This document shows, piece after piece, positions 5,119 through 62,438 of a stretch of DNA of 64,000 nt. Every line of letters begins with the position of its first letter. Positions within the stretch are counted from its first letter, which is position 1. The stretch covers positions 304,110,001 through 304,174,000 of the forward strand of contig OZ024742.1 in assembly GCA_964016885.1 (NCBI GenBank), in the 5' to 3' direction. The notes under the pieces were generated by a model. That model saw only the letters and a program-made list of their open reading frames with translations, did not search any database and was not told the origin of the DNA. The position numbers and the translations under genes are program-made. The DNA is from Eledone cirrhosa (Eukaryota).

Positions 5119-5425
5119 CGAGCGAGAGCAAGGCGGACATGGATAGAGTGATATATATTTATTTATATTCATTTTATTTAGACGAAATAGTGAGTTTTGT
5201 TACTTTGGAATTTCAACTAAAACTCCATATATATATATATATATATACTCATATATCTCCGACAAATAACCGACAAATAACCGAAAGTGGCTTCTTCGCG
5301 GTGGCCCCAATAGAGTATTTATCCAACATTTCGACAGCATGTAGAAACTGACTAAATATACCACCAACCATACACAATTAGGTGTAAAATTAAACTGAGA
5401 AGAAATGTGTACATACCGTAATTAT

Positions 5426-5502
5426 ATCTCTACCATGGTTTCATCCGTATTTTTAGACATCCAATTAATAGGAATGTCTTGAGTTAGGATTCATCAGGAG
5501 AC
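5426..5502 (-). ncRNA. Type I hammerhead ribozyme (R656, copy 1)
   Basis: Minus strand reads TCTC-CTGATGA-ATCC...GGAT-GAAAC-CATG-GTA^GAGA: canonical core, stem I TCTC/GAGA, stem II ATCC/GGAT, palindromic stem III ACCATGGT. Predicted cleavage between 5431 and 5430. Confidence 0.85.
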
Positions 5503-6081
5503 AAACTCAAAATCAGACATTTAGTTTTCCAACTTGATCGCGCCAAAATTAGATTCAAAAATGGCTAAGAATCGCTATGTGGCTGTGATCAAGCTAGAAA
5601 GAATGTGATTGGTTGCTTACGGCGGGTAGGCTTGTTGCTAGAAAGCGCAGCCAAATATCGCCAAATTGAATCTCAACCTAACGGGAGATTATTAAATATA
5701 AAGGTTTACATATACATAAAGTTATAGATATATATGCTGCAACCGGTCAATTTTAGGCTCTATGAAGAATTAATAAATTAAATAATCAGAGCAATATATC
5801 ATAAATCATGTCCTTAGAATTATTAGATAAAATATATACCATTTCCTCTTCCAATTAGCATAATTAACTATATAAAAAATCAATTAGACCAAGCTATAAG
5901 AAGAAAGGCTCTTATGAAGAAATCTCCGACAAATAATCGAAAGTGGCCTCTTCGCGGTGGCCCCAATAGAGTATTTATCCAACATTTCGACAGCATGTAG
6001 AAACTGACTAAATATACCATCAACCGTACACAATTAGGTGTAAAATTAAACTTAGAAGAAATGTGTACATACCGTAATTAT

Positions 6082-6158
6082 ATCTCTACCATGGTTTCAT
6101 CCGTATTTTTAGACATCCAATTAATAGGAATGTCTTGAGTTAGGATTCATCAGGAGAC
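6082..6158 (-). ncRNA. Type I hammerhead ribozyme (R656, copy 2)
   Basis: Same motif as 5426-5502, shifted by 656 bp. Confidence 0.85.
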
Positions 6159-6268
6159 AAACTCAAAATCAGACATTTAGTTTTCCAACTTGATCGCGCC
6201 AAAATTAGATTAAAAAATGGCTAAGATATATATATATATATCAGTATGTATATATCTATCTATATATA

Positions 6269-6352: not shown

Positions 6353-6360
6353 ATATATAT

Positions 6361-6776
6361 ATATTAGTAAAAGGAAAAGAAAATGCTGATAAATTTTCCC
6401 CAGTGAAAAATAGTTTCATTAGGAATAAGTATAAATTAGTAATAAGTATTGGTTACTATTCAGTTTTAGTTTTAAGCTTTTACTCGTTGCGCATTTCTAA
6501 TGCTTTTCAAAAATAATTTTGAGATAGAGCGCTCGTGTTGTTTGCTCTAACAGATTAGAGCAAACATCACGAGCGCTCTATCTCAAAATTATTTTTGAAA
6601 AGCATTAGAAATGCGCAACGAGTAAAAGCTTAAAACTAAAACTGAATAGTAACCAATACTTATTACTAATTTATACTTATTCCTAATTAAACTATTTTTC
6701 ACTGGGAAAACTTTGTCAGCATTTTCTTTTCCTTTTACTAATATATCACAACTCGTGTGTTACACCTCTATTCTTT

Positions 6777-25477: not shown

Positions 25478-25980
25478 ATTTAGGAACAGTTTAGGTATGA
25501 TACATTTTATTACTAATTATATCTAAATGTTTCTTCTCTCTTCATAATGTATTTTTAACTCTGATACTGGTTCAGTCTGGTTCAAACTGAATTGGTCTGT
25601 CCCAGTCATTCATTGAGCAACATCGGTGAAGTTGGCACCCTTAACTCACAGTTGGGTGCGGATGCATTCATGTATATATGTGTGTGTCCGCATGTATCTG
25701 TGTGTTTCTAAATGTATTAATAACTCCCTCTGGTCGAGCAATCTTTGAAGTGTGGGGACAATTGGAAAGCTTCCATTACTCATACTTCTCGCCTTCTTCA
25801 CTACCTCTTCTACGGCCTCGATATGAATACCCCCTCCGCCTCCGTGGTATTTTTTTCGTGGTTATAAGAGGCTTAGCTCTGTTTCTCGACCGTTATATCG
25901 CGTGACTATCTCCCCCTCCGCCTTTTGGGATTCTTTCTCACGTCGTGTAGACGCGTTCTTGAGACTAGTAAAATGAGGTA

Positions 25981-26068
25981 TCCTCTTGATAAGTCGGCAG
26001 ACCTCGCAAGGACTCTATATTTTTGATATATTGTTTTTGTTTATGCCACGAAACTACGTAGTCGAGGA
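25981..26068 (+). ncRNA. Type I hammerhead ribozyme, U3-A8 variant (R591, copy 2)
   Basis: Same as copy 1, shifted by 591. Predicted cleavage after 26063. Confidence 0.75.
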
Positions 26069-26596
26069 ATTTAGGAACAGTTTAGGTATGATACATTTTA
26101 TTACTAATTATATCTAAATGTTTCTTCTCTCTTCATAATGTATATATATATATATATATTTACAAGCTGAAGCAATCAATACACAACAAACATGGTTTAG
26201 TCACTATATATATATATATATATATATAATAGAAACGTTAACCACAGACACAGCAACAGTGACCACAGTAGTAATAACGGTAACAATACGAACAACAACA
26301 ACAATAACCACAGTGGTAATAATGGAAATAGTACATGTAGCAACATCAACAAAAACAAGAAACATAATAATAGTAACAACCACAATGGTAGAAATAGCAG
26401 TAACAACAACAACAATAACGGTGAAGTAAACAACAATACATCTAGCAATCATAATAAAAATAATAATAATGCTAATGATAGAAACAACAACAACCACCAT
26501 GATAACAATAATAGCAACACACACAACTATGACGATAGAAATAACGACAACCCCTTAGAGAAACTATTTTTCAACCCAGCTGACAAAACATATAAG

Positions 26597-28729
26597 ATGG
26601 GTAATATCTATCCTACGAGGTTACCCTTTAACAAAAGAGTTTGCATAGCACAGCAAATAGATGACGAGACGGAGGCACAGTTCACCATAGCTAGAAATAA
26701 GATTAGACAGGTAGTAGACAGGTACACTATGAGACAGAGCAGACCAGAGGCCCAACAACTTGGGAGAAAACCTGTAGAAGGCTTGGTTAGCCTCAAGCAG
26801 CGCACAAGGGAGGGTGAGGTAGTGTGTCTACCCACAGATAAGTCTGGTAGGATGTCAATAGATAGCATGCCGAACTACATCGAGGCAATGCAACCCCACA
26901 TCACCAACACGAGCGAAGTTGCACAACTAACACACGATGGGAGAGAAAAAATCATCAACGCTCACATGATGATGTGGACTGACATCCTAAAGCCAAGCAG
27001 ACGCACTGCCAACAACTTCCAGGCGCCTAACAATGGCATACCACCCTTGTATGGGCTCCGCAAAGACCACAAGACAGCCGACGACCCGACAACAGGAGCA
27101 CCAACAAGACCCGTATGCGGAGCTAATATAGCTAGCAACTACAGGATCTCCTACTTCCTCTCAATGGTTATACGCCCCATAATCAAGATGTCCCCAGATG
27201 TATGTGAAAGTACAGAGGACCTCCTCAGCAGAATCAGTGAGTGCAACAAAAACAGGAGCCTATCCAACTGCATAATAGGTAGCATGGATGTAGTGTCACT
27301 GTACCCATCCATCAACATTGATTTTGCTGTGAAAAGATGTGTGGAGATGATCATTGAGAGTGAGGTGGAGTTCTGCGACGTCGACACAGACGAACTGGGC
27401 CTCCTACTTAGACTTACCTACGACACTGACTACCTAGACAGCCATGACCTTAGATGTTTCTGCCCTAGTAGACCTATAAGAGGTAGACCCCCCACCATAA
27501 CCCCAATGGCTAAAAAGACTCCCATAGGAAGGTGGATTGGGTGGACCAAAGCCATACGGACCCCCCAAAACACTGATCAGGTAAGAAAAATGGTCGCACA
27601 TGCAATAGGGGCTAGTATCAAAACTACCCTAAAGGGCCACATATTTAAGTTCAATGAGAAAATCTACACCCAAAATGAGGGAGCAGCCATCGGCGTCAGC
27701 ATAGCTGGTGATGTTGCCAACCTTTTCATGGTATGGTGGGAAAGGAGACTTAAAGATCTCCTTAATGAAAGCTCCATAGACCTCATCATGTACTCTCGTT
27801 ATGTAGACGATATCAATATAGTTATAAGAACACCCCCACTAGAGAGCACTAACAAGTTTGATTTAGAACGTAGCACGATGGAAAGCATCCAGCAGATAGC
27901 TAATTCCATACACCAGAGTATAACTGTAACTATCGACTTCCCTTCCAAACACCCTAACAATAGACTACCTGTATTAGACACAGAACTCTGGATTAACACT
28001 ATAGACGAGAGAGCCCAAATTCTCCACTCACACTATGCTAAACCCATGGCCTCCAAATACCTGATACTCAAAAACTCAGCAATGTCCAGTAGTGCTAAGT
28101 TTAATATTCTGATCGCAGATTTGGTACGAGTGATGAAGAATGTGTCCAGCATGTGCGACCCAACAGAAATGGAAGGACACATCCAACGCTTCATCAACCG
28201 CATGCAGTTCTCTGGCTACAACCAAAGAGACAGAGTCAGAGTATACGAAGGAGCCATGGAAAAGTATAAGACCCTCATAGAACTGGACATGAAAGGAATC
28301 TGCCCACTATACAGGAGCAAATCATGGAATAGCTTAGATAGGGCTAGACATAAGATAGGGAAGGCCACATCATGGTACGACAACCAGAGATATCAGAGTG
28401 TCATGTTTGTGGACGCCACCCCTGGAGGGAAATTAGCTAACCAGTGTAGAAAGGCCCTGAGAAAGACCCACTTAAAAATAAAGGTGGTAGAAAAGCCAGG
28501 AACCACCATAAAATCCCTGATCAGCAAAACCTACCCTTTTAAGAAAACCCACTGTACCAATAGGAAGTGTATCATATGTAAGGTGAACCCCCGGATAAAC
28601 TGTAAAACTAGAAACGTAGTCTATAGCATAAGATGTACACAGGGTACTTGCAGAAACATGATAACAACATACATAGGTGAGACAGCTCGTAGCATAGGTG
28701 AAAGGATAGACCAACACTGGGGAAACTAA
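26597..28729 (+). CDS. PLE reverse transcriptase + GIY-YIG endonuclease polyprotein; frame is open from about 26228 and the C-terminus is frameshifted, ending at 28956
   Basis: Motifs TDKSGR, LYGLRKDHK..TRPVC, SMDVVSLYPSI, QNEGAAIG, YSRYVDD, LPVLD, HYAKPM, SGY, PLYR, IKVVEKPG, CxxxxCxxC, VVYSIRC and YIGETARS..R..QH. A 1-nt deletion near 28720 shifts the frame away from ...VLYEHARQQH...RQIREASEI...LNRKNEW, judged against ORF 61298-61561. Confidence 0.92.
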   Translation: MGNIYPTRLPFNKRVCIAQQIDDETEAQFTIARNKIRQVVDRYTMRQSRPEAQQLGRKPVEGLVSLKQRTREGEVVCLPTDKSGRMSIDSMPNYIEAMQPHITNTSEVAQLTHDGREKIINAHMMMWTDILKPSRRTANNFQAPNNGIPPLYGLRKDHKTADDPTTGAPTRPVCGANIASNYRISYFLSMVIRPIIKMSPDVCESTEDLLSRISECNKNRSLSNCIIGSMDVVSLYPSINIDFAVKRCVEMIIESEVEFCDVDTDELGLLLRLTYDTDYLDSHDLRCFCPSRPIRGRPPTITPMAKKTPIGRWIGWTKAIRTPQNTDQVRKMVAHAIGASIKTTLKGHIFKFNEKIYTQNEGAAIGVSIAGDVANLFMVWWERRLKDLLNESSIDLIMYSRYVDDINIVIRTPPLESTNKFDLERSTMESIQQIANSIHQSITVTIDFPSKHPNNRLPVLDTELWINTIDERAQILHSHYAKPMASKYLILKNSAMSSSAKFNILIADLVRVMKNVSSMCDPTEMEGHIQRFINRMQFSGYNQRDRVRVYEGAMEKYKTLIELDMKGICPLYRSKSWNSLDRARHKIGKATSWYDNQRYQSVMFVDATPGGKLANQCRKALRKTHLKIKVVEKPGTTIKSLISKTYPFKKTHCTNRKCIICKVNPRINCKTRNVVYSIRCTQGTCRNMITTYIGETARSIGERIDQHWGN

Positions 28730-29241
28730 AAGGACGAAAAAACGGGTCAGTACTATACGAACATGCTAGACAACAACATGACGGTAACATAGACAACATA
28801 GAAATTAGAATAATATCTAAACATAGGAATGACCCAGCAGATAGGCAAATCAGAGAGGCCAGTGAAATAGAAATTAGAAGACCAAAGCTAAACAGAAAGA
28901 ATGAGTGGAACAACAACAACACCCAAACAAACAACACTGACCTAAGAGAAGTATAAATAAATAAGTAAATAAAATAAAATAAAATAAGATAAATAAATAC
29001 ATACACAAGCACAATAACAACAAGCACATAAACACACACTAGTCACCCAGCAGGCACAACACTATACACACTAGTCACACATCACACATAACACTATACA
29101 CACACGCAAACGCATGCGCAAAGAAGACAAAATAAAATAAGATAAACAAACAAGCAAATAAATAAATAAATATATAGACAGACTGAATAAAAAATGGCGT
29201 AGACATACAACACAACAGGAGGAACAATGAATATAACACCA

Positions 29242-29272
29242 CTGACGATGTTGCAGATGTGCAACGAAAGAT
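29242..29272 (+). ncRNA. Minimal HHR-like motif in the Naiad pLTR (stems I and III degenerate)
   Basis: CTGACGA-T-GTTGCA-GATG-TGCAAC-GAAAG, at the same relative position as the HHR of the sister family (43441-43483). Confidence 0.55.
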
Positions 29273-29492
29273 TTATGTAAATTATGTAAACTATATATAT
29301 ATATATGTGTTTGTGTCTATATTGTATCTGTATTATTTTTGACCGCCGGTCAGTCAATGGCAACATTGAGGACCGAGTAAGTTAGATCGCAGATATAATA
29401 AAAGACAGCGAGAAGCGAAAACCAACCAAACAGTGAGTGTGTTCTGTTATTAATTCTGGCAATATTACGCAAATATGACCCTCCCCAAGTAT

Positions 29493-29540
<48 letters not shown>

Positions 29541-42355: not shown

Positions 42356-43679
42356 ATACTTTGGGAGGGTCATGTTGCCAATAAGAAACACACGCACCTG
42401 TGCTTTCACTCCAATTTATTATAAATTAAATTTATAGACTTAAGAATTTATAAATTTCCTGTTGGTTGGTTCCACAACTGGATGGTTGTTCATATATTGT
42501 CAAAGTTCTTTCGTCACACATTATGTGACCTCTTCAGTGACTGGGGATTATTTTCTTTGTTTTGTTCCTCTCCTTTGTTCTGTCCTACGCCATCTTGTTT
42601 GTGTGTGCGTTGTGTGCTTAGTTTGCGTATGTGTTACATCCGGGTGTCTGTGTGTGTTTTTATTTGTTTATTTGTTTATTTAAATGTTACTGGTTGGTTG
42701 TTTGTTCTATGTGTGTGTGTGTGTTTTCATTTTGTCCTTAAATGTAAGTTGTGATGTTGCTATTCCATTCATGTTTTCTATTTAATTTTGGTTGGAGTTC
42801 ATTTATGTTTATTGCCTCTGTGATTTGTCTAAACATTGCGTCTTTTCTGTGTGTAGATTTTATTTTTATTTCTATGTTCTCTAATTTGCCCTTATGTTCT
42901 ATTTTAGCATGTTGGTGGAGTATTGATGATTCTTTTTTATCTTGAAGCTCTCGCCAGTGGTCATTTAACCGTTCATTTAACCGTTCATTTAACCGTTCGA
43001 ACGGTTAAATCAACACCGGCGAGAGCTTCAAGATAAAAAAGAATCATTAATACTCCACCATTATGCTAAAATAGAACATAAGGGCAAATTAGAGAACATA
43101 GAAATAAAAATAAAATCTACACACAGAAAAGACGCAATGTTTAGACAAATCACAGAGGCAATAAACATAAATGAACTCCAACCAAATTTAAATAGAAAAC
43201 ATGAATGGAATAGCAACATCACAACTTACAATTAAGGACAAAATGAAAATACACACACACACATAGAACAAACAACCAACCAGTAACATGTAAATAAACA
43301 AATAAATAAACAAATAAAAATACACACAGACACCCGGATGTAACACATGCGCAAGCTAATCACACAACACAACACATACAAAAACAAGATGGCGTAGGAG
43401 AGAAGAAAGGAGAGGCACAAAACAAAGAAAATAATCCCCAGTCACTGAAGAGGTCACAGAATGTGTGACGAAAGAACTTTGACAATATATGGACAACCGT
43501 CCGGTTGTGGAATCAACCAACCGGAAATTTATAAATTCTTAAATTCATAATAAATTGGAGTGAAACACTGGTGCGTGTGTTTCTTATTGGCAACATGACC
43601 CTCCCAAAGTATAACAATATCGGTTTCAACGCACGTTTTCAGATAAAGAATCTTGTTAAACAAATTCAAAAGCGATATT

Positions 43680-43680
<1 letters not shown>
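42351..43680. mobile_element. About 1.3-kb palindrome made of two head-to-head 3' ends of Naiad family B
   Basis: 42351-42970 (minus) and about 42999-43620 (plus) both encode the endonuclease tail ELQDKKES..LHQHAKIEHKGKLENIEIKIKSTHRKDAMFRQITEAININELQPKLNRKHEW, followed by a pLTR with an HHR. Confidence 0.88.
43441..43483 (+). ncRNA. Minimal type I HHR in the Naiad-B pLTR (other copies: 42499-42541 minus, 61057-61099 minus, 62271-62313 plus)
   Basis: GTCA-CTGAAGA-G-GTCAC-AGAATGT-GTGAC-GAAAG-AA-CTT^TGAC. Stem I GTCA/TGAC; stem II GTCAC/GTGAC. Confidence 0.7.
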
Positions 43681-43730
<50 letters not shown>

Positions 43731-43849
43731 TTCATGTATAGCTGTATATATAAATATCGTTCGTATCTAGCTGTCGAAAAGGCCGGAGCTCAGCTGTCGG
43801 GGTCCTGACTCTTTTCATATTACCCACTCTACTATATATATATATATAT

Positions 43850-44638
43850 ATCATAAAACATGTCTATAGAATCACCAGATAAAATATATACCGTTTCCTC
43901 TCCCAATTAGCATAACACCTCTCCCAATTAGCAAAACAAATATATATCTATGACTTTATATATATATATATATATATGTAAACCTTTATATGTAATAATC
44001 TCCCGTTAGGTTGAGATACAATTTTGGCTGTATTGGGCTGCGCTTTCTAGCAAAAAAGCCTACCAGTAGTAAGCAACTAATCACATCCTTTCTAACTTGA
44101 TTCTTAGCCATTTTTGAATGTATTCTTGGCGCGATCACTTTGGAAAATTAATTGTCTAAATTTGAGCTAACTCCTGAAGAGTCCGGGGCCCTAGATTTCC
44201 AATGTTATCGGATATCTTAAAATGCGGACGAAACCATGGTAGAGGTCACTAAATATGTTCATTTTCTTCTAGTTAATTTACACCTAATTCTGTTTAGTTA
44301 ACTGTATATCTGTTCGATTTATACACGCTGTCGAAATACTCGATAAATACTCCGCCGCAACCGCCGCGAAGGGCTGCTTTCTGAGATTTGTCGGGGATTT
44401 CTTCATAGGAGCCTTTATTCTTAATGCTTGGTCTAATTGATTTTTTTATATGGTTGATTATGCTAATTGGGAGAGGAAACGGTATATATTGTATCTGGTG
44501 ATTCTATAGACATGTTTTATGATATATAGCTCTGATTATTTAATTTATTAACTCCTCACTGAGCCACAAAGTGACCCGTTGCAAAACACATATATATCTA
44601 TGACTTTATCTATATATATATGTAAACCTTTATATGTA
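43850..44638 (+). mobile_element. Diverged R656-family retrozyme-like copy: 5' inversion, one full monomer and about 55 bp terminal redundancy
   Basis: Homologous throughout to the reverse complement of 5253-6226. 43933-43994 is repeated at 44583-44638. 43850-43915 is the reverse complement of about 44459-44525. HHR at 44171-44244. Confidence 0.8.
44171..44244 (+). ncRNA. Type I hammerhead ribozyme (R656 diverged copy)
   Basis: CTC-CTGAAGA-GTCCG...CGGAC-GAAAC-CATG-GTA^GAG. The base of stem II covaries with ATCC/GGAT in the 5.4/6.1-kb copies. Confidence 0.85.
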
Positions 44639-44692: not shown

Positions 44693-45290
<598 letters not shown>

Positions 45291-45300
45291 ATATATATAT

Positions 45301-45442
45301 ATAGAGTTACGGCCCTTTATGGTCTGAGTTCAAATCCCGCCGAGGTTAATTTGCCTTTCATCCTTACGGGGTCGATAAAATAAAGTACCAGTAATACACT
45401 GTGATAATTGCTGGCCTTGTGCCAAAAGTAGGAATAATTATT
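45301..45442 (+). mobile_element. SINE S1, 5'-truncated (an inverted head fragment lies at 44641-44667)
   Basis: Consensus match. Confidence 0.8.
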
Positions 45443-60874: not shown

Positions 60875-62438
60875 TCGTTTCTGAATTTGTTTAGTAAGAT
60901 TCTTTATCTGAAAACGTGTGTTGAAACCGATATTGTTGTACATTGGGAGGGTCATGTTGCGAATAGGAAACACATGCACTAGTTGCTTTCACTTCAATTT
61001 ATTATAAATTTCCGGTTGGTTGGTTGATTCCACAACTGGATGGTTGTTCATATATTGTCAAAGTTCTTTCGTCACACATACTATGACCTCTTCAATGACT
61101 GGGGGTTCTTTTCTTTGTTTTGTGCCTCTCCTTTGTTCTGTCCTACGCCATCTTGTTTTTGTGTGTGTTGTGTGCTTAGTTTGCGCATGCGTTACATTCG
61201 TGTGTCTGTGTGTGTTTTTATTTGTCTATTTATTTGTTTATTTACATGTTACTAGTTAGTTGTTTGTTTTATGTGTGTGTTTTTTTAATTTTTGTCCTTA
61301 ATTGTAAGTTGTGATGTTGCTATTCCATTCATGTTTTCTATTTAATTTTGGTTGGCGTTCATTTATGTGTATTGCCTCTATGATTTGTCTAAACATTGCG
61401 TCTTTTCTGTGTGTAGACTTTATTTCTATGTCTATGTTCTCTAATTTACCCTTATGTTCTATTTTAGCATGTTGGTAGAGTACTGGTGAGTCTTTTATAT
61501 CTTGAAGTTCTCGCCAGTGTTCATTTAATCGTTCTCCTATGCTACGAGCTGTCTCACCCATGTATATTATATTCTTATCTTTACATTGTCCCTCAGTACA
61601 TCTTGTGCTAAATATTATGTTTCTAGTTTTATAGTTAATATAGGGGCTTAGTTTACAGATTATGCATTTCTTATCTATACAGGGAGGTCTTTGAAAAGGG
61701 TATTATTACTAATAAGTGTTTTTATGGAGGTACCTGGTCTTTCCACTATCTTAATATATAGTTTAAGTTTATCTAGGGCCCTTCTAAATTTGTAAGCTAG
61801 TTCACCTCTAGGGGATGTATTGATGAACATTACACTCTGGTATTTATTGCTATCATACCATGAGTTTATTTTATTAACCTTATTCCTAGTTCTTTCTATT
61901 CTAAATCTGCAATCAGTATGTTGATTTTGGTGTGATCCGAAATAAAAATAAAATCTACACACAGAAAAGACGTAATGCTTAAACAAATCACAGAGGCAAT
62001 AAACATAAATGAACTCCAACCAAAATTAAATAGAAAACATGAATGGAATAGCAACACCACAACTTACAATTAAGGGCAAAAATGAAAACTCACACACATA
62101 GAACAAACAACTAACTAGTAACATGTAAATAAAAAAATAAATAAACAAATAAAAACACACACAGACACTCGAATGTAACGCAAGCGCAAACTAAGCTCAC
62201 AACACAAACAAAAACAAGATGGCGTAAGATAGAACAAAGGAGAGGCACAGAACAAAGAAAAGAAAACCCAGTCACTGAAGAAGTCACATAATGTGTGACG
62301 AAAGAACTTTGACAATATATGCACAACCATCCGGTTGTGGAATCAATCAACTAACCGGAAATTTATAATAAATTGAAGTGAAACAACTGGTGCATGTGTT
62401 TCTTATTGGCAACATGACCCTCCCAAAGTATAACAATA
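60875..62438. mobile_element. Naiad family B: long minus-strand 3' fragment (60875-61905) joined head-to-head to a shorter plus-strand 3' fragment (61939-62438)
   Basis: ORFs 61675-62019 (SWYDSNKYQSVMFINTSPRGELA...IKIVERPGTSIKTLIS) and 61298-61561 (MGETARSIGERLNEHW...LNRKHEW) are homologous to the 710-aa ORF. Both arms carry the pLTR HHR. Confidence 0.88.

Follow-up and report, generated by a model that had tools for sequence, protein, structure and literature searches.

A non-coding tandem hammerhead element of Eledone cirrhosa with PLE-like insertion ends

The focal copy and its hammerhead

The stretch of Eledone cirrhosa DNA analysed here (64,000 nucleotides on contig C3, referred to as the window) contains a non-coding insertion built of tandem units, each carrying a type I hammerhead. 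In agreement with a preliminary description of this DNA, which had reported about 1.5 units between (TA)n tracts and two minus-strand hammerhead cores 656 nt apart, the insertion comprises ∼1.48 units with TA runs on both sides, and the cores start at 6153 and 5497 (CUGAUGA...GAAAC-CAUG-GUA). The unit is numbered on the hammerhead-sense strand as the reverse complement of window positions 5270-5925, with position 1 at 5925; the hammerhead core then starts at unit position 429 and the predicted cut falls after position 495. Predicted cuts are placed by the established hammerhead numbering. The features of the focal copy are as follows.

5255..6226, minus strand: focal insertion of ∼1.48 units, delimited by self-BLAST and the match at a 656-nt offset
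6083..6164, minus strand: upstream type I hammerhead, with pseudoknot strand 6164-6161, core from 6153 and predicted cut 6087/6086
5427..5508, minus strand: downstream type I hammerhead, with core from 5497 and predicted cut 5431/5430
5431..6086, minus strand: predicted cut-to-cut monomer of 656 nt, 34% G+C, folding better than shuffles
5794..5800, minus strand: site A (unit position 132), a UA run matching the (TA)n target and the commonest 3′ end in the family
5693..5793, minus strand: 101-nt 'tail' from site A to site B, the latter (unit position 233, window 5693) being the other frequent 3′ end
5605..5612, minus strand: CCAAT-like motif at unit position 314
5539-5546 and 6195-6202, minus strand: TTGGCGCG motif
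5259..5280, minus strand: tandem duplication of 11 nt where the focal copy has its atypical 3′ end
5227..5254, no strand: (TA)n flank on the 3′ side
6227..6240, no strand: (TA)n flank on the 5′ side, within a longer mixed microsatellite that reaches 6364

Read from 6226 to about 5255, the insertion begins at unit position 356, passes once round the unit through both site A and site B and stops at about position 4; the segment 5264-5570 recurs at 5920-6226 with 97.4% identity in the self-BLAST. This 3′ end corresponds to neither A nor B and is atypical; odd priming or later loss may account for it. Its continuation lies outside the twelve commonest continuations of the same motif among the fetched loci, and the missing 3′ remainder of the unit is found neither in the window nor in the 20 kb before its start. 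Three hammerhead matches are obtained when the window is scanned, compared with none in 99 of 100 block shuffles and one in the remaining shuffle. The whole-window repeat search is dominated by microsatellites.

The longest stop-to-stop frame, searched on both strands of a tripled unit, is 65 codons. Folding of the linear monomer is better than that of shuffles (z = -3.84, 20 shuffles); for the circular form z is -3.36 on the hammerhead strand and -1.86 on the antisense strand (30 shuffles each), and ranges from -0.85 to -4.88 across seven units. Upstream of the hammerhead, the CCAAT-like and TTGGCGCG motifs, which resemble a 'CCAAT box' and an 'E2F-like' site, are a possible internal promoter as judged from their sequence; C[TC]AATCAC is present in 64 of 99 full units and TTGGCGC[GA] in 76 of 99. 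The strings TTGGCGC and CCAATC also occur 3′ of the ORF in two autonomous PLEs (loci L041 and L052) and may reflect a shared internal promoter design.

The hammerhead had been described as canonical. This is correct for the core (CUGANGA / GAAA / UH with stems I-III), which is intact in 86 of 99 full units, but not for the A-U pair at the base of stem II, for an insertion of ∼40 nt in stem II or for a pseudoknot that replaces the usual loop 1-loop 2 contact. In the available text of PMC4209133 a G-C pair is given as typical for the first position of stem II. The pseudoknot pairs GAGY, just 5′ of stem I, with RCUC in the internal loop of stem II. The focal hammerhead has a palindromic stem III, and short stems of this kind with activity as dimers are established according to the available texts of PMC7229834, PMC4209133 and the review PMC6765202. 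The Rfam hammerhead family accounts for none of the four matches of one scan and for none among 150 of the 162 matches listed in another.

Covariation was scored for 29 stretches chosen for diversity from 115 (114 distinct hammerheads and the relative in the window), all selected on the stem III motif. The scheme covers stem I (4 bp), stem II (5 bp), the outer stem II extension (6 bp), stem III (2 bp plus CAUG) and the pseudoknot (4 bp). Pairing is seen in 89.8% of 596 cells and a change on both sides in 44 cells, neither value being reached in 500 shuffles, statistics that involve non-independent relatives and a structure read from the same sequences; slid partners pair in 30-51%. The inner pseudoknot pair is CG in 13 stretches, UA in 13 and UG in two, and the outer pair of stem I is CG in 15 and UA in ten. 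Two further scores are weaker: the number of pairs with two-sided change (eight) is matched by 17 of 500 shuffles and that of pair types by 139 of 500. Covariation supports the hammerhead fold; cleavage is a prediction.

The base of stem II is more variable (GC in 12 of the 29 stretches, AU in eight and unpaired in eight). The compensatory change proposed there is real in the second copy of the window, where A-U has become G-C (GUCC/GGAC), but it is loosely kept in the family: the 114 distinct hammerheads include 41 with AUCC/GGAU, 15 with GUCC/GGAC and 25 with the mismatched AUCC/GGAC. The focal hammerhead lacks the fifth stem II pair and, when folded alone, has a minimum-energy fold that is not hammerhead-shaped (z = -1.04). 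Its preferred alternative pairs a conserved upstream UGUCU with the stem II extension, and according to these folding calculations may represent an off state or poor activity. The corresponding UGUCY element (unit positions 406-412, window 5514-5520), which lies 5′ to the strand forming the pseudoknot, is retained in the different subfamilies (1,781 matches to the pattern). In the folding models it can take the place of the 3′ strand of the stem II extension, and a conformational switch is possible. Unrelated hammerhead-like motifs are present in flanking repeats at loci L249, L251, L252, L257, L057 and L058, and the genome has many hammerhead families.

The family, its insertion ends and the PLE link

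Exact searches of the genome (3.0 Gb in 1,796 contigs) with three patterns returned 1,957, 2,526 and 1,781 matches, while each reversed control returned none. A DNA search with the unit gave 3,927 candidates, 40 of which were scored. The family comprises at least five subfamilies that are 77-98% like the window unit, with a median length of 658 for 110 full units, and two intact cores one unit apart are present in the focal copy and in nine of 127 regions surveyed. The assignment to the retrozymes, as a dispersed element of tandem non-coding units with a type I hammerhead, is supported: the element has every retrozyme feature that can be tested on DNA. It is not an autonomous PLE, as it has no ORF for RT and GIY-YIG between pLTRs. 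More diverged relatives (L061:1620-2997 and L070:511-1060) show 69-80% identity and a changed stem II, and the one at L061 is also arranged head to head.

The second copy in the window consists of two arms.

43931..44638, plus strand: main arm, ∼1.09 units of another subfamily, with core at 44174 and predicted cut after 44241, ending at site B
43846..43915, minus strand: inverted arm made of unit positions 63-132, its end at site A adjoining (TA)n

This relative had been noted as a single full monomer with terminal redundancy. The copy is indeed present (75-78% identity) with a terminal repeat of 58-64 nt, mostly TA-rich, but it lies on the plus strand, its core reads CUGAAGA and its period is ∼650 nt. 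The 70-nt inverted arm at 43846-43915 had been overlooked and makes the copy a head-to-head insertion with one A and one B end. Directly after it, at 44708-45303, a pair of 298-nt inverted arms surrounds a 220-nt TA tract.

Insertion ends were surveyed in the regions around the first 100 matches listed for each of two patterns (the hammerhead and a segment near the 3′ end), which are all located on C1, from 4 to 127 Mb, and merge into 127 regions. They hold 223 arms, 221 of which have their 3′ end inside the region. Site A is the end of 113 arms (107 exactly at 132) and site B that of 78 (60 exactly at 233); as the UA runs at A and B pass without a border into the target, the position of an end is defined to within a few bases. 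The remaining 30 end elsewhere, several of them inside complex rearrangements or beside other insertions. TA-rich DNA adjoins 172 of the 191 A or B ends, and the 30 best matches of the genome DNA search have the same ends. The 5′ ends, on the other hand, are truncated anywhere along the unit; the nearest-relative alignment was used for these alone, as it over-ran the 3′ ends into TA tracts. A target-site duplication cannot be distinguished because the flanks are (TA)n, and comparison of flank with flank returned mostly short inverted arms of the element itself.

Arms are frequently joined head to head. Out of 72 such pairs, two touch the edge of a region and 18 contain at least one end of the third class, leaving 52 that are fully classed: 49 combine an A with a B end, one has two A ends and two have two B ends (P = 5e-12 against 0.5, the ceiling for A-B pairing under independent choice of ends). 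At 45 junctions the two 5′ ends, whose positions in the unit bear no relation to each other, are joined with a small overlap or gap. The preliminary description had taken copies in different registers as the sign of copying round a circle. This argument fails because one end is fixed: 191 of 221 3′ ends lie at two sites, and what varies is ordinary 5′ truncation. The signature of PLE insertion, namely two start sites, an inverted arm and a TA target, had not been recognized there.

The fixed A and B ends, the truncated 5′ ends and the A-B pairing together constitute the footprint of a PLE 'tail' and therefore identify the family as a PLE-mobilized non-LTR retrozyme. We put the probability that it is a non-autonomous hammerhead element mobilized by PLEs at about 0.93. 

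An array of 44 units on C1 (92985617-93016034, loci L231-L234) is of a different nature. It extends over 30 kb, with a B end on the left and an A end on the right, keeps the core in 33 units and shows a 6-unit periodicity with networked variants. This is a satellite that arose from one retro-insertion and later grew by DNA duplication; its original length cannot be inferred because the variants are networked. It was considered as a master locus and rejected: the nearest dispersed copies are closer to the majority sequence of the array (0.023) than to any of its units (0.031), so the array is not their evident source. Its growth by duplication speaks for a reading of the whole family as a satellite or a DNA-level rolling-circle repeat with a relic hammerhead-like motif. 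That explanation is hardly credible in view of the fixed 3′ and random 5′ ends, the head-to-head arms and the TA targeting, together with two-sided covariation across subfamilies that are 75-99% alike and a strand-specific fold.

A driver was looked for among 53 PLE loci, made up of 40 GIY-YIG loci, L101 and 12 loci from the PLE family present in the window; 150 of 10,596 GIY-YIG candidates were scored. In the matches listed for these loci, terminal sequence shared with the unit comes from copies of the unit nearby, and no PLE has the unit as its terminal repeat. The ORF-bearing family represented by L061 has a tail of ∼40 nt, and A plus B ends are found in all four head-to-head loci among its 25; the window's own family has a 60-nt tail and many intact frames of 1,217 codons. 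Because these ORF-bearing PLEs of the same genome share the design and include many intact frames, active enzymes of the right kind are present. The end of the L061 family is faintly similar to the unit (16 of 500 shuffles score as well), and its tail is different.

The element might instead represent truncated pieces of an autonomous PLE, its pLTR or its 3′ end and nothing else, the case that had been named as refuting a retrozyme. Its ends, inversion and target are PLE-like, a PLE protein match lies nearby in 19 of the 127 regions, and at L101 and L091 a PLE 3′ end abuts the 5′ end of an arm. We regard this as very improbable. An arm that exceeds one unit continues with another unit and not with an ORF (18 of 79 arms, with as many as 44 units), and among the matches listed none of the 53 PLE loci carries the unit terminally. 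L101 and L091 were also considered as PLE-retrozyme fusions and set aside as separate insertions, as a TA tract lies between the two partners at L091 and the join at L101 falls in the unit's own TA run.

Several PLE remnants occur in the window. A young 5′-truncated PLE at 25700-29500 is 98% like many intact 1,217-codon copies; its frame at 26201-28729 (842 codons) contains RT and, C-terminally, GIY-YIG preceded by a CX4CXXC motif, by which it would be of the Neptune/Nematis type. It has a minimal hammerhead-like motif at ∼29240-29275 and a 3′ end at ∼29497, with the 60-nt tail in sister copies. Fragments related to this family form large inverted repeats at 42432-43680 and 60987-62383, one of which shows the end and tail (∼43595-43680). 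Beside the focal copy, at 6359-6776, a fold-back with 192-nt arms corresponds to the head-to-head 3′ ends of another PLE family. It has a tail of ∼35 nt on the right arm only, the same tail is present in reverse near 2187-2220, and related ends follow the ORF in L041 and L101.

The template and a model of copying

Copying from a circle, which the preliminary description had derived from the registers, remains the best reading, but its support now comes from read-through and shared variants. Of 79 arms picked by their 3′ motif, 47 extend as far as the first cut site and 18 are longer than one unit, while only three have 5′ ends at unit positions 486-506, where our arithmetic gives ∼2.5 for a uniform distribution. 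At polymorphic sites the passes within a locus agree in 176 of 218 comparisons (81%) and disagree in 42, compared with 12% agreement between loci; pairs from three-pass loci are not independent here. About half of the non-majority alleles are shared within a locus, compared with 12% between loci (112 loci). Comparison of nearest-neighbour distances within and between loci was uninformative.

Variants private to one locus were collected from 129 of 165 passes (77 of 157 loci), those of the young subfamilies that align better. In tandem passes 19 of them occur in both and 156 in one only, while by our arithmetic ∼0.2 would coincide by chance; in inverted arms 15 occur in both and 87 in one. Recurrent variants are found in both passes 77 times, in the upstream pass only 13 times and in the downstream pass only ten times. 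Their single-pass carriers fall on the same side in 11 cases and on opposite sides in 12, and thus show no side preference. Ordered differences between unit 1 and unit 2 that did recur are located in diverged subfamilies beside alignment gaps.

We lean towards circular RNA as the template, because a circle explains the read-through, the shared variants and the lack of ordered unit-1/unit-2 inheritance together. All three results can also be explained if the enzyme jumps back onto its own template molecule, and with more difficulty by linear transcripts of very young tandem parents or by gene conversion. Such a jump would occur if the template were the cut linear monomer and the reverse transcriptase passed from its 5′ end to the 3′ end of that molecule or of a sister molecule without a covalent circle. 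Clusters of disagreeing sites at a few loci (L020 and L195) are as expected for a jump to another molecule. The 5′ ends do not, however, pile up at the cut site (three of 79) and 81 of 99 full units, a set partly selected on the junction motif, have that motif intact, making this route improbable.

The same PLE enzymes could also copy an uncut linear multimer transcribed from tandem loci, with the hammerhead serving RNA stability or limiting read-through and circles arising as a side product. Uncut RNA is the main substrate used in vitro for the anole PLE, and hammerhead mutants of the PLE tested insert normally in vitro, as described in the available text of PMC11167929. Long templates such as the 30-kb, 44-unit array on C1 exist, internal starts at A and B are equally workable on a linear multimer, and identical units in a young parent would mimic shared variants. 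This remains a serious but somewhat doubtful option. In the youngest subfamily, ordered unit-1/unit-2 differences are seen at no more than four of 36 loci for any site, with the 11 to 12 division of sides noted above, and the copies nearest the large array resemble its majority rather than any unit (0.023 compared with 0.031). Locus-private variants in both passes would require that the tandem was rebuilt from one unit shortly before insertion. Linear copying alone, with 5′ truncation in each round, would moreover erode tandems.

The strand bias of the variants was also inspected. A polarized test for A-to-I editing gave no significant result (A>G 16 compared with T>C 10, P = 0.07; G>A 18 compared with C>T 10, P = 0.26). 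Among variants in both tandem passes of young subfamilies, read on the hammerhead strand, G>A occurs 45 times and C>T three times, with A>G 31 and T>C 22. Private single-pass changes include 20 G>A and 15 C>T, and a few sites recur many times. The excess of G>A among shared variants may reflect selection on RNA pairing. Sequence depth, which is highest just 5′ of site A, was given no weight, depth being no measure of copy number.

With a circular template, the cycle could run as follows. A locus with more than one unit would be transcribed, as its promoter-like motifs suggest. The hammerheads would cut after GUA and release the monomer, in the modelled structure with the aid of the 4-bp pseudoknot and probably also of pairing between two palindromic stems III. 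By analogy with the coral, mussel and axolotl retrozymes in the available text of PMC7229834, a host ligase would close the monomer. A PLE protein, by its reverse transcriptase and GIY-YIG nuclease, would then nick (TA)n and start cDNA at site A or, 101 nt on, at site B. Copying would proceed toward the 5′ side, cross the ligated cut site and continue for a further round until a random stop, which is the footprint seen. Where both target strands are primed, one would use A and the other B on the same sequence, presumably a single molecule, and the two cDNAs would join head to head.

In its most specific form, which we offer as a tentative proposal, one PLE complex acts on one circular 656-nt RNA and assigns A and B to the two nicked strands of a palindromic (TA)n target, after which each enzyme rolls along that circle. 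The paired A and B ends would then be an asymmetric two-enzyme footprint, and the pseudoknotted hammerhead with its long stem II a fast-cutting form that supplies the circle.

Known systems and the meaning of the family

The closest known elements are the non-LTR retrozymes of coral, mussel and axolotl, which cut themselves, build up in circular form and can be ligated in vitro by RtcB, and for which PLEs have been proposed as drivers (PMC7229834, available text). Shared with the metazoan elements of that study are non-coding tandem units with one type I hammerhead each, thousands of copies, a G+C content below 50% (34% here) and a self-paired monomer; HHR_Amex2 of axolotl also has a two-pair stem III with a tetraloop. 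The unit of 656 nt compares with 170-400 nt for the coral, mussel and axolotl RNAs, and the present hammerhead differs in its extended stem II with a pseudoknot. Expression and circles have been demonstrated for those retrozymes, whereas the present element is known from DNA. Their target-site duplications, when present, exceed 4 bp, and fixed 3′ ends, a tail, head-to-head arms and TA targeting are not described in the available text of that paper.

The length had been considered unusual. It is not: vertebrate non-LTR retrozymes range over 51-972 bp, with a mean of 650 bp in ray-finned fish (10.64898/2026.07.22.740005), and 150 to >1000 nt is given in the accessible part of PMC7229834. Li, Clavereau and Pollet (2026; 10.64898/2026.07.22.740005) link vertebrate non-LTR retrozymes to PLE pLTRs and find monomers, dimers, rare long arrays and PLE co-occurrence, as in E. 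cirrhosa. One of nine Xenopus retrozyme dimers cleaved in vitro. In Xenopus 24 of 57 families match annotated elements, nearly all of them PLEs, while no matching pLTR was found here in the matches listed for the 53 PLE loci. That study covers 35 genomes, with no mollusc among the classes listed, and contains no junction-level evidence. In the literature searched we found neither a junction-level study of retrozyme insertions nor a cephalopod retrozyme, although the supplements of PMC7229834 and of the 2026 preprint may name more species; the available text of an octopus repeat annotation (PMC13282606) does not mention ribozymes or retrozymes.

The likeness to EN+ PLEs is equally close. Craig et al. 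(2021; 10.1101/2021.04.23.441226, available text) describe 5′ truncation, partial tandems, an adjacent inverted copy and a (TA)n bias, with a tail of 30-40 bp, usually at one end. Frangieh et al. (2024; PMC11167929) report in the accessible text that in vitro both strands of the target are cut and extended by a PLE protein, with two start sites internal to the RNA that delimit the tail. As far as these two sources, PMC4209133 and PMC3846280 are available, the shared features are 5′ truncation, partial tandems, an inverted 5′-truncated copy, a one-end tail, two internal start sites, a microsatellite target and a hammerhead with palindromic stem III. The element studied here differs in having no ORF and a tail of 101 nt instead of 30-40 nt (10.1101/2021.04.23.441226, available text). 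Both of its start sites are UA runs matching the target, unlike the start site of the anole element, which lacks homology to the cut DNA, and the two ends here differ in 49 of 52 pairs, whereas in vitro the strands are alike in start site (PMC11167929, as accessible). Plant LTR retrozymes, with a type III hammerhead in LTRs, a primer-binding site, a polypurine tract and a 4-bp duplication, are not matched; the topology here is type I and the start sites are internal.

Pseudoknotted hammerheads were described by Perreault et al. (2011; PMC3088659), in whose available text they make up ∼40% of representatives, belong to all three types and cleave faster owing to the contact. Common to both is that the regions of stems I and II touch through base pairs and not through the usual loop-loop contact. 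In the predicted structure presented here, it is the strand 5′ of stem I that contacts the internal loop of a long stem II.

How PLEs make tandem, inverted and tailed insertions is a standing question on which this family bears. Production of more-than-unit cDNA from a circle was proposed for PLEs in 2014 (PMC4209133, available text), and copying of animal retrozymes from circles by PLEs was proposed between 2014 and 2020 but is not shown in the literature compared. The class, the length and the PLE link are already in print; what is added is a tight, testable footprint of how copying runs. As the class is known and the length ordinary, the gain is in mechanistic detail and not in a new system. 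The family ties a retrozyme to the PLE mechanism with evidence at the level of junctions, and imposes a quantitative constraint, namely that an insertion with two arms has an A end and a B end derived from the same sequence. It also offers a substrate of small size for which the cut and start sites are predicted exactly. If one complex does act on one circle, this would be a minimal, protein-free substrate for reconstituting the tandem-and-inversion cycle of PLEs.
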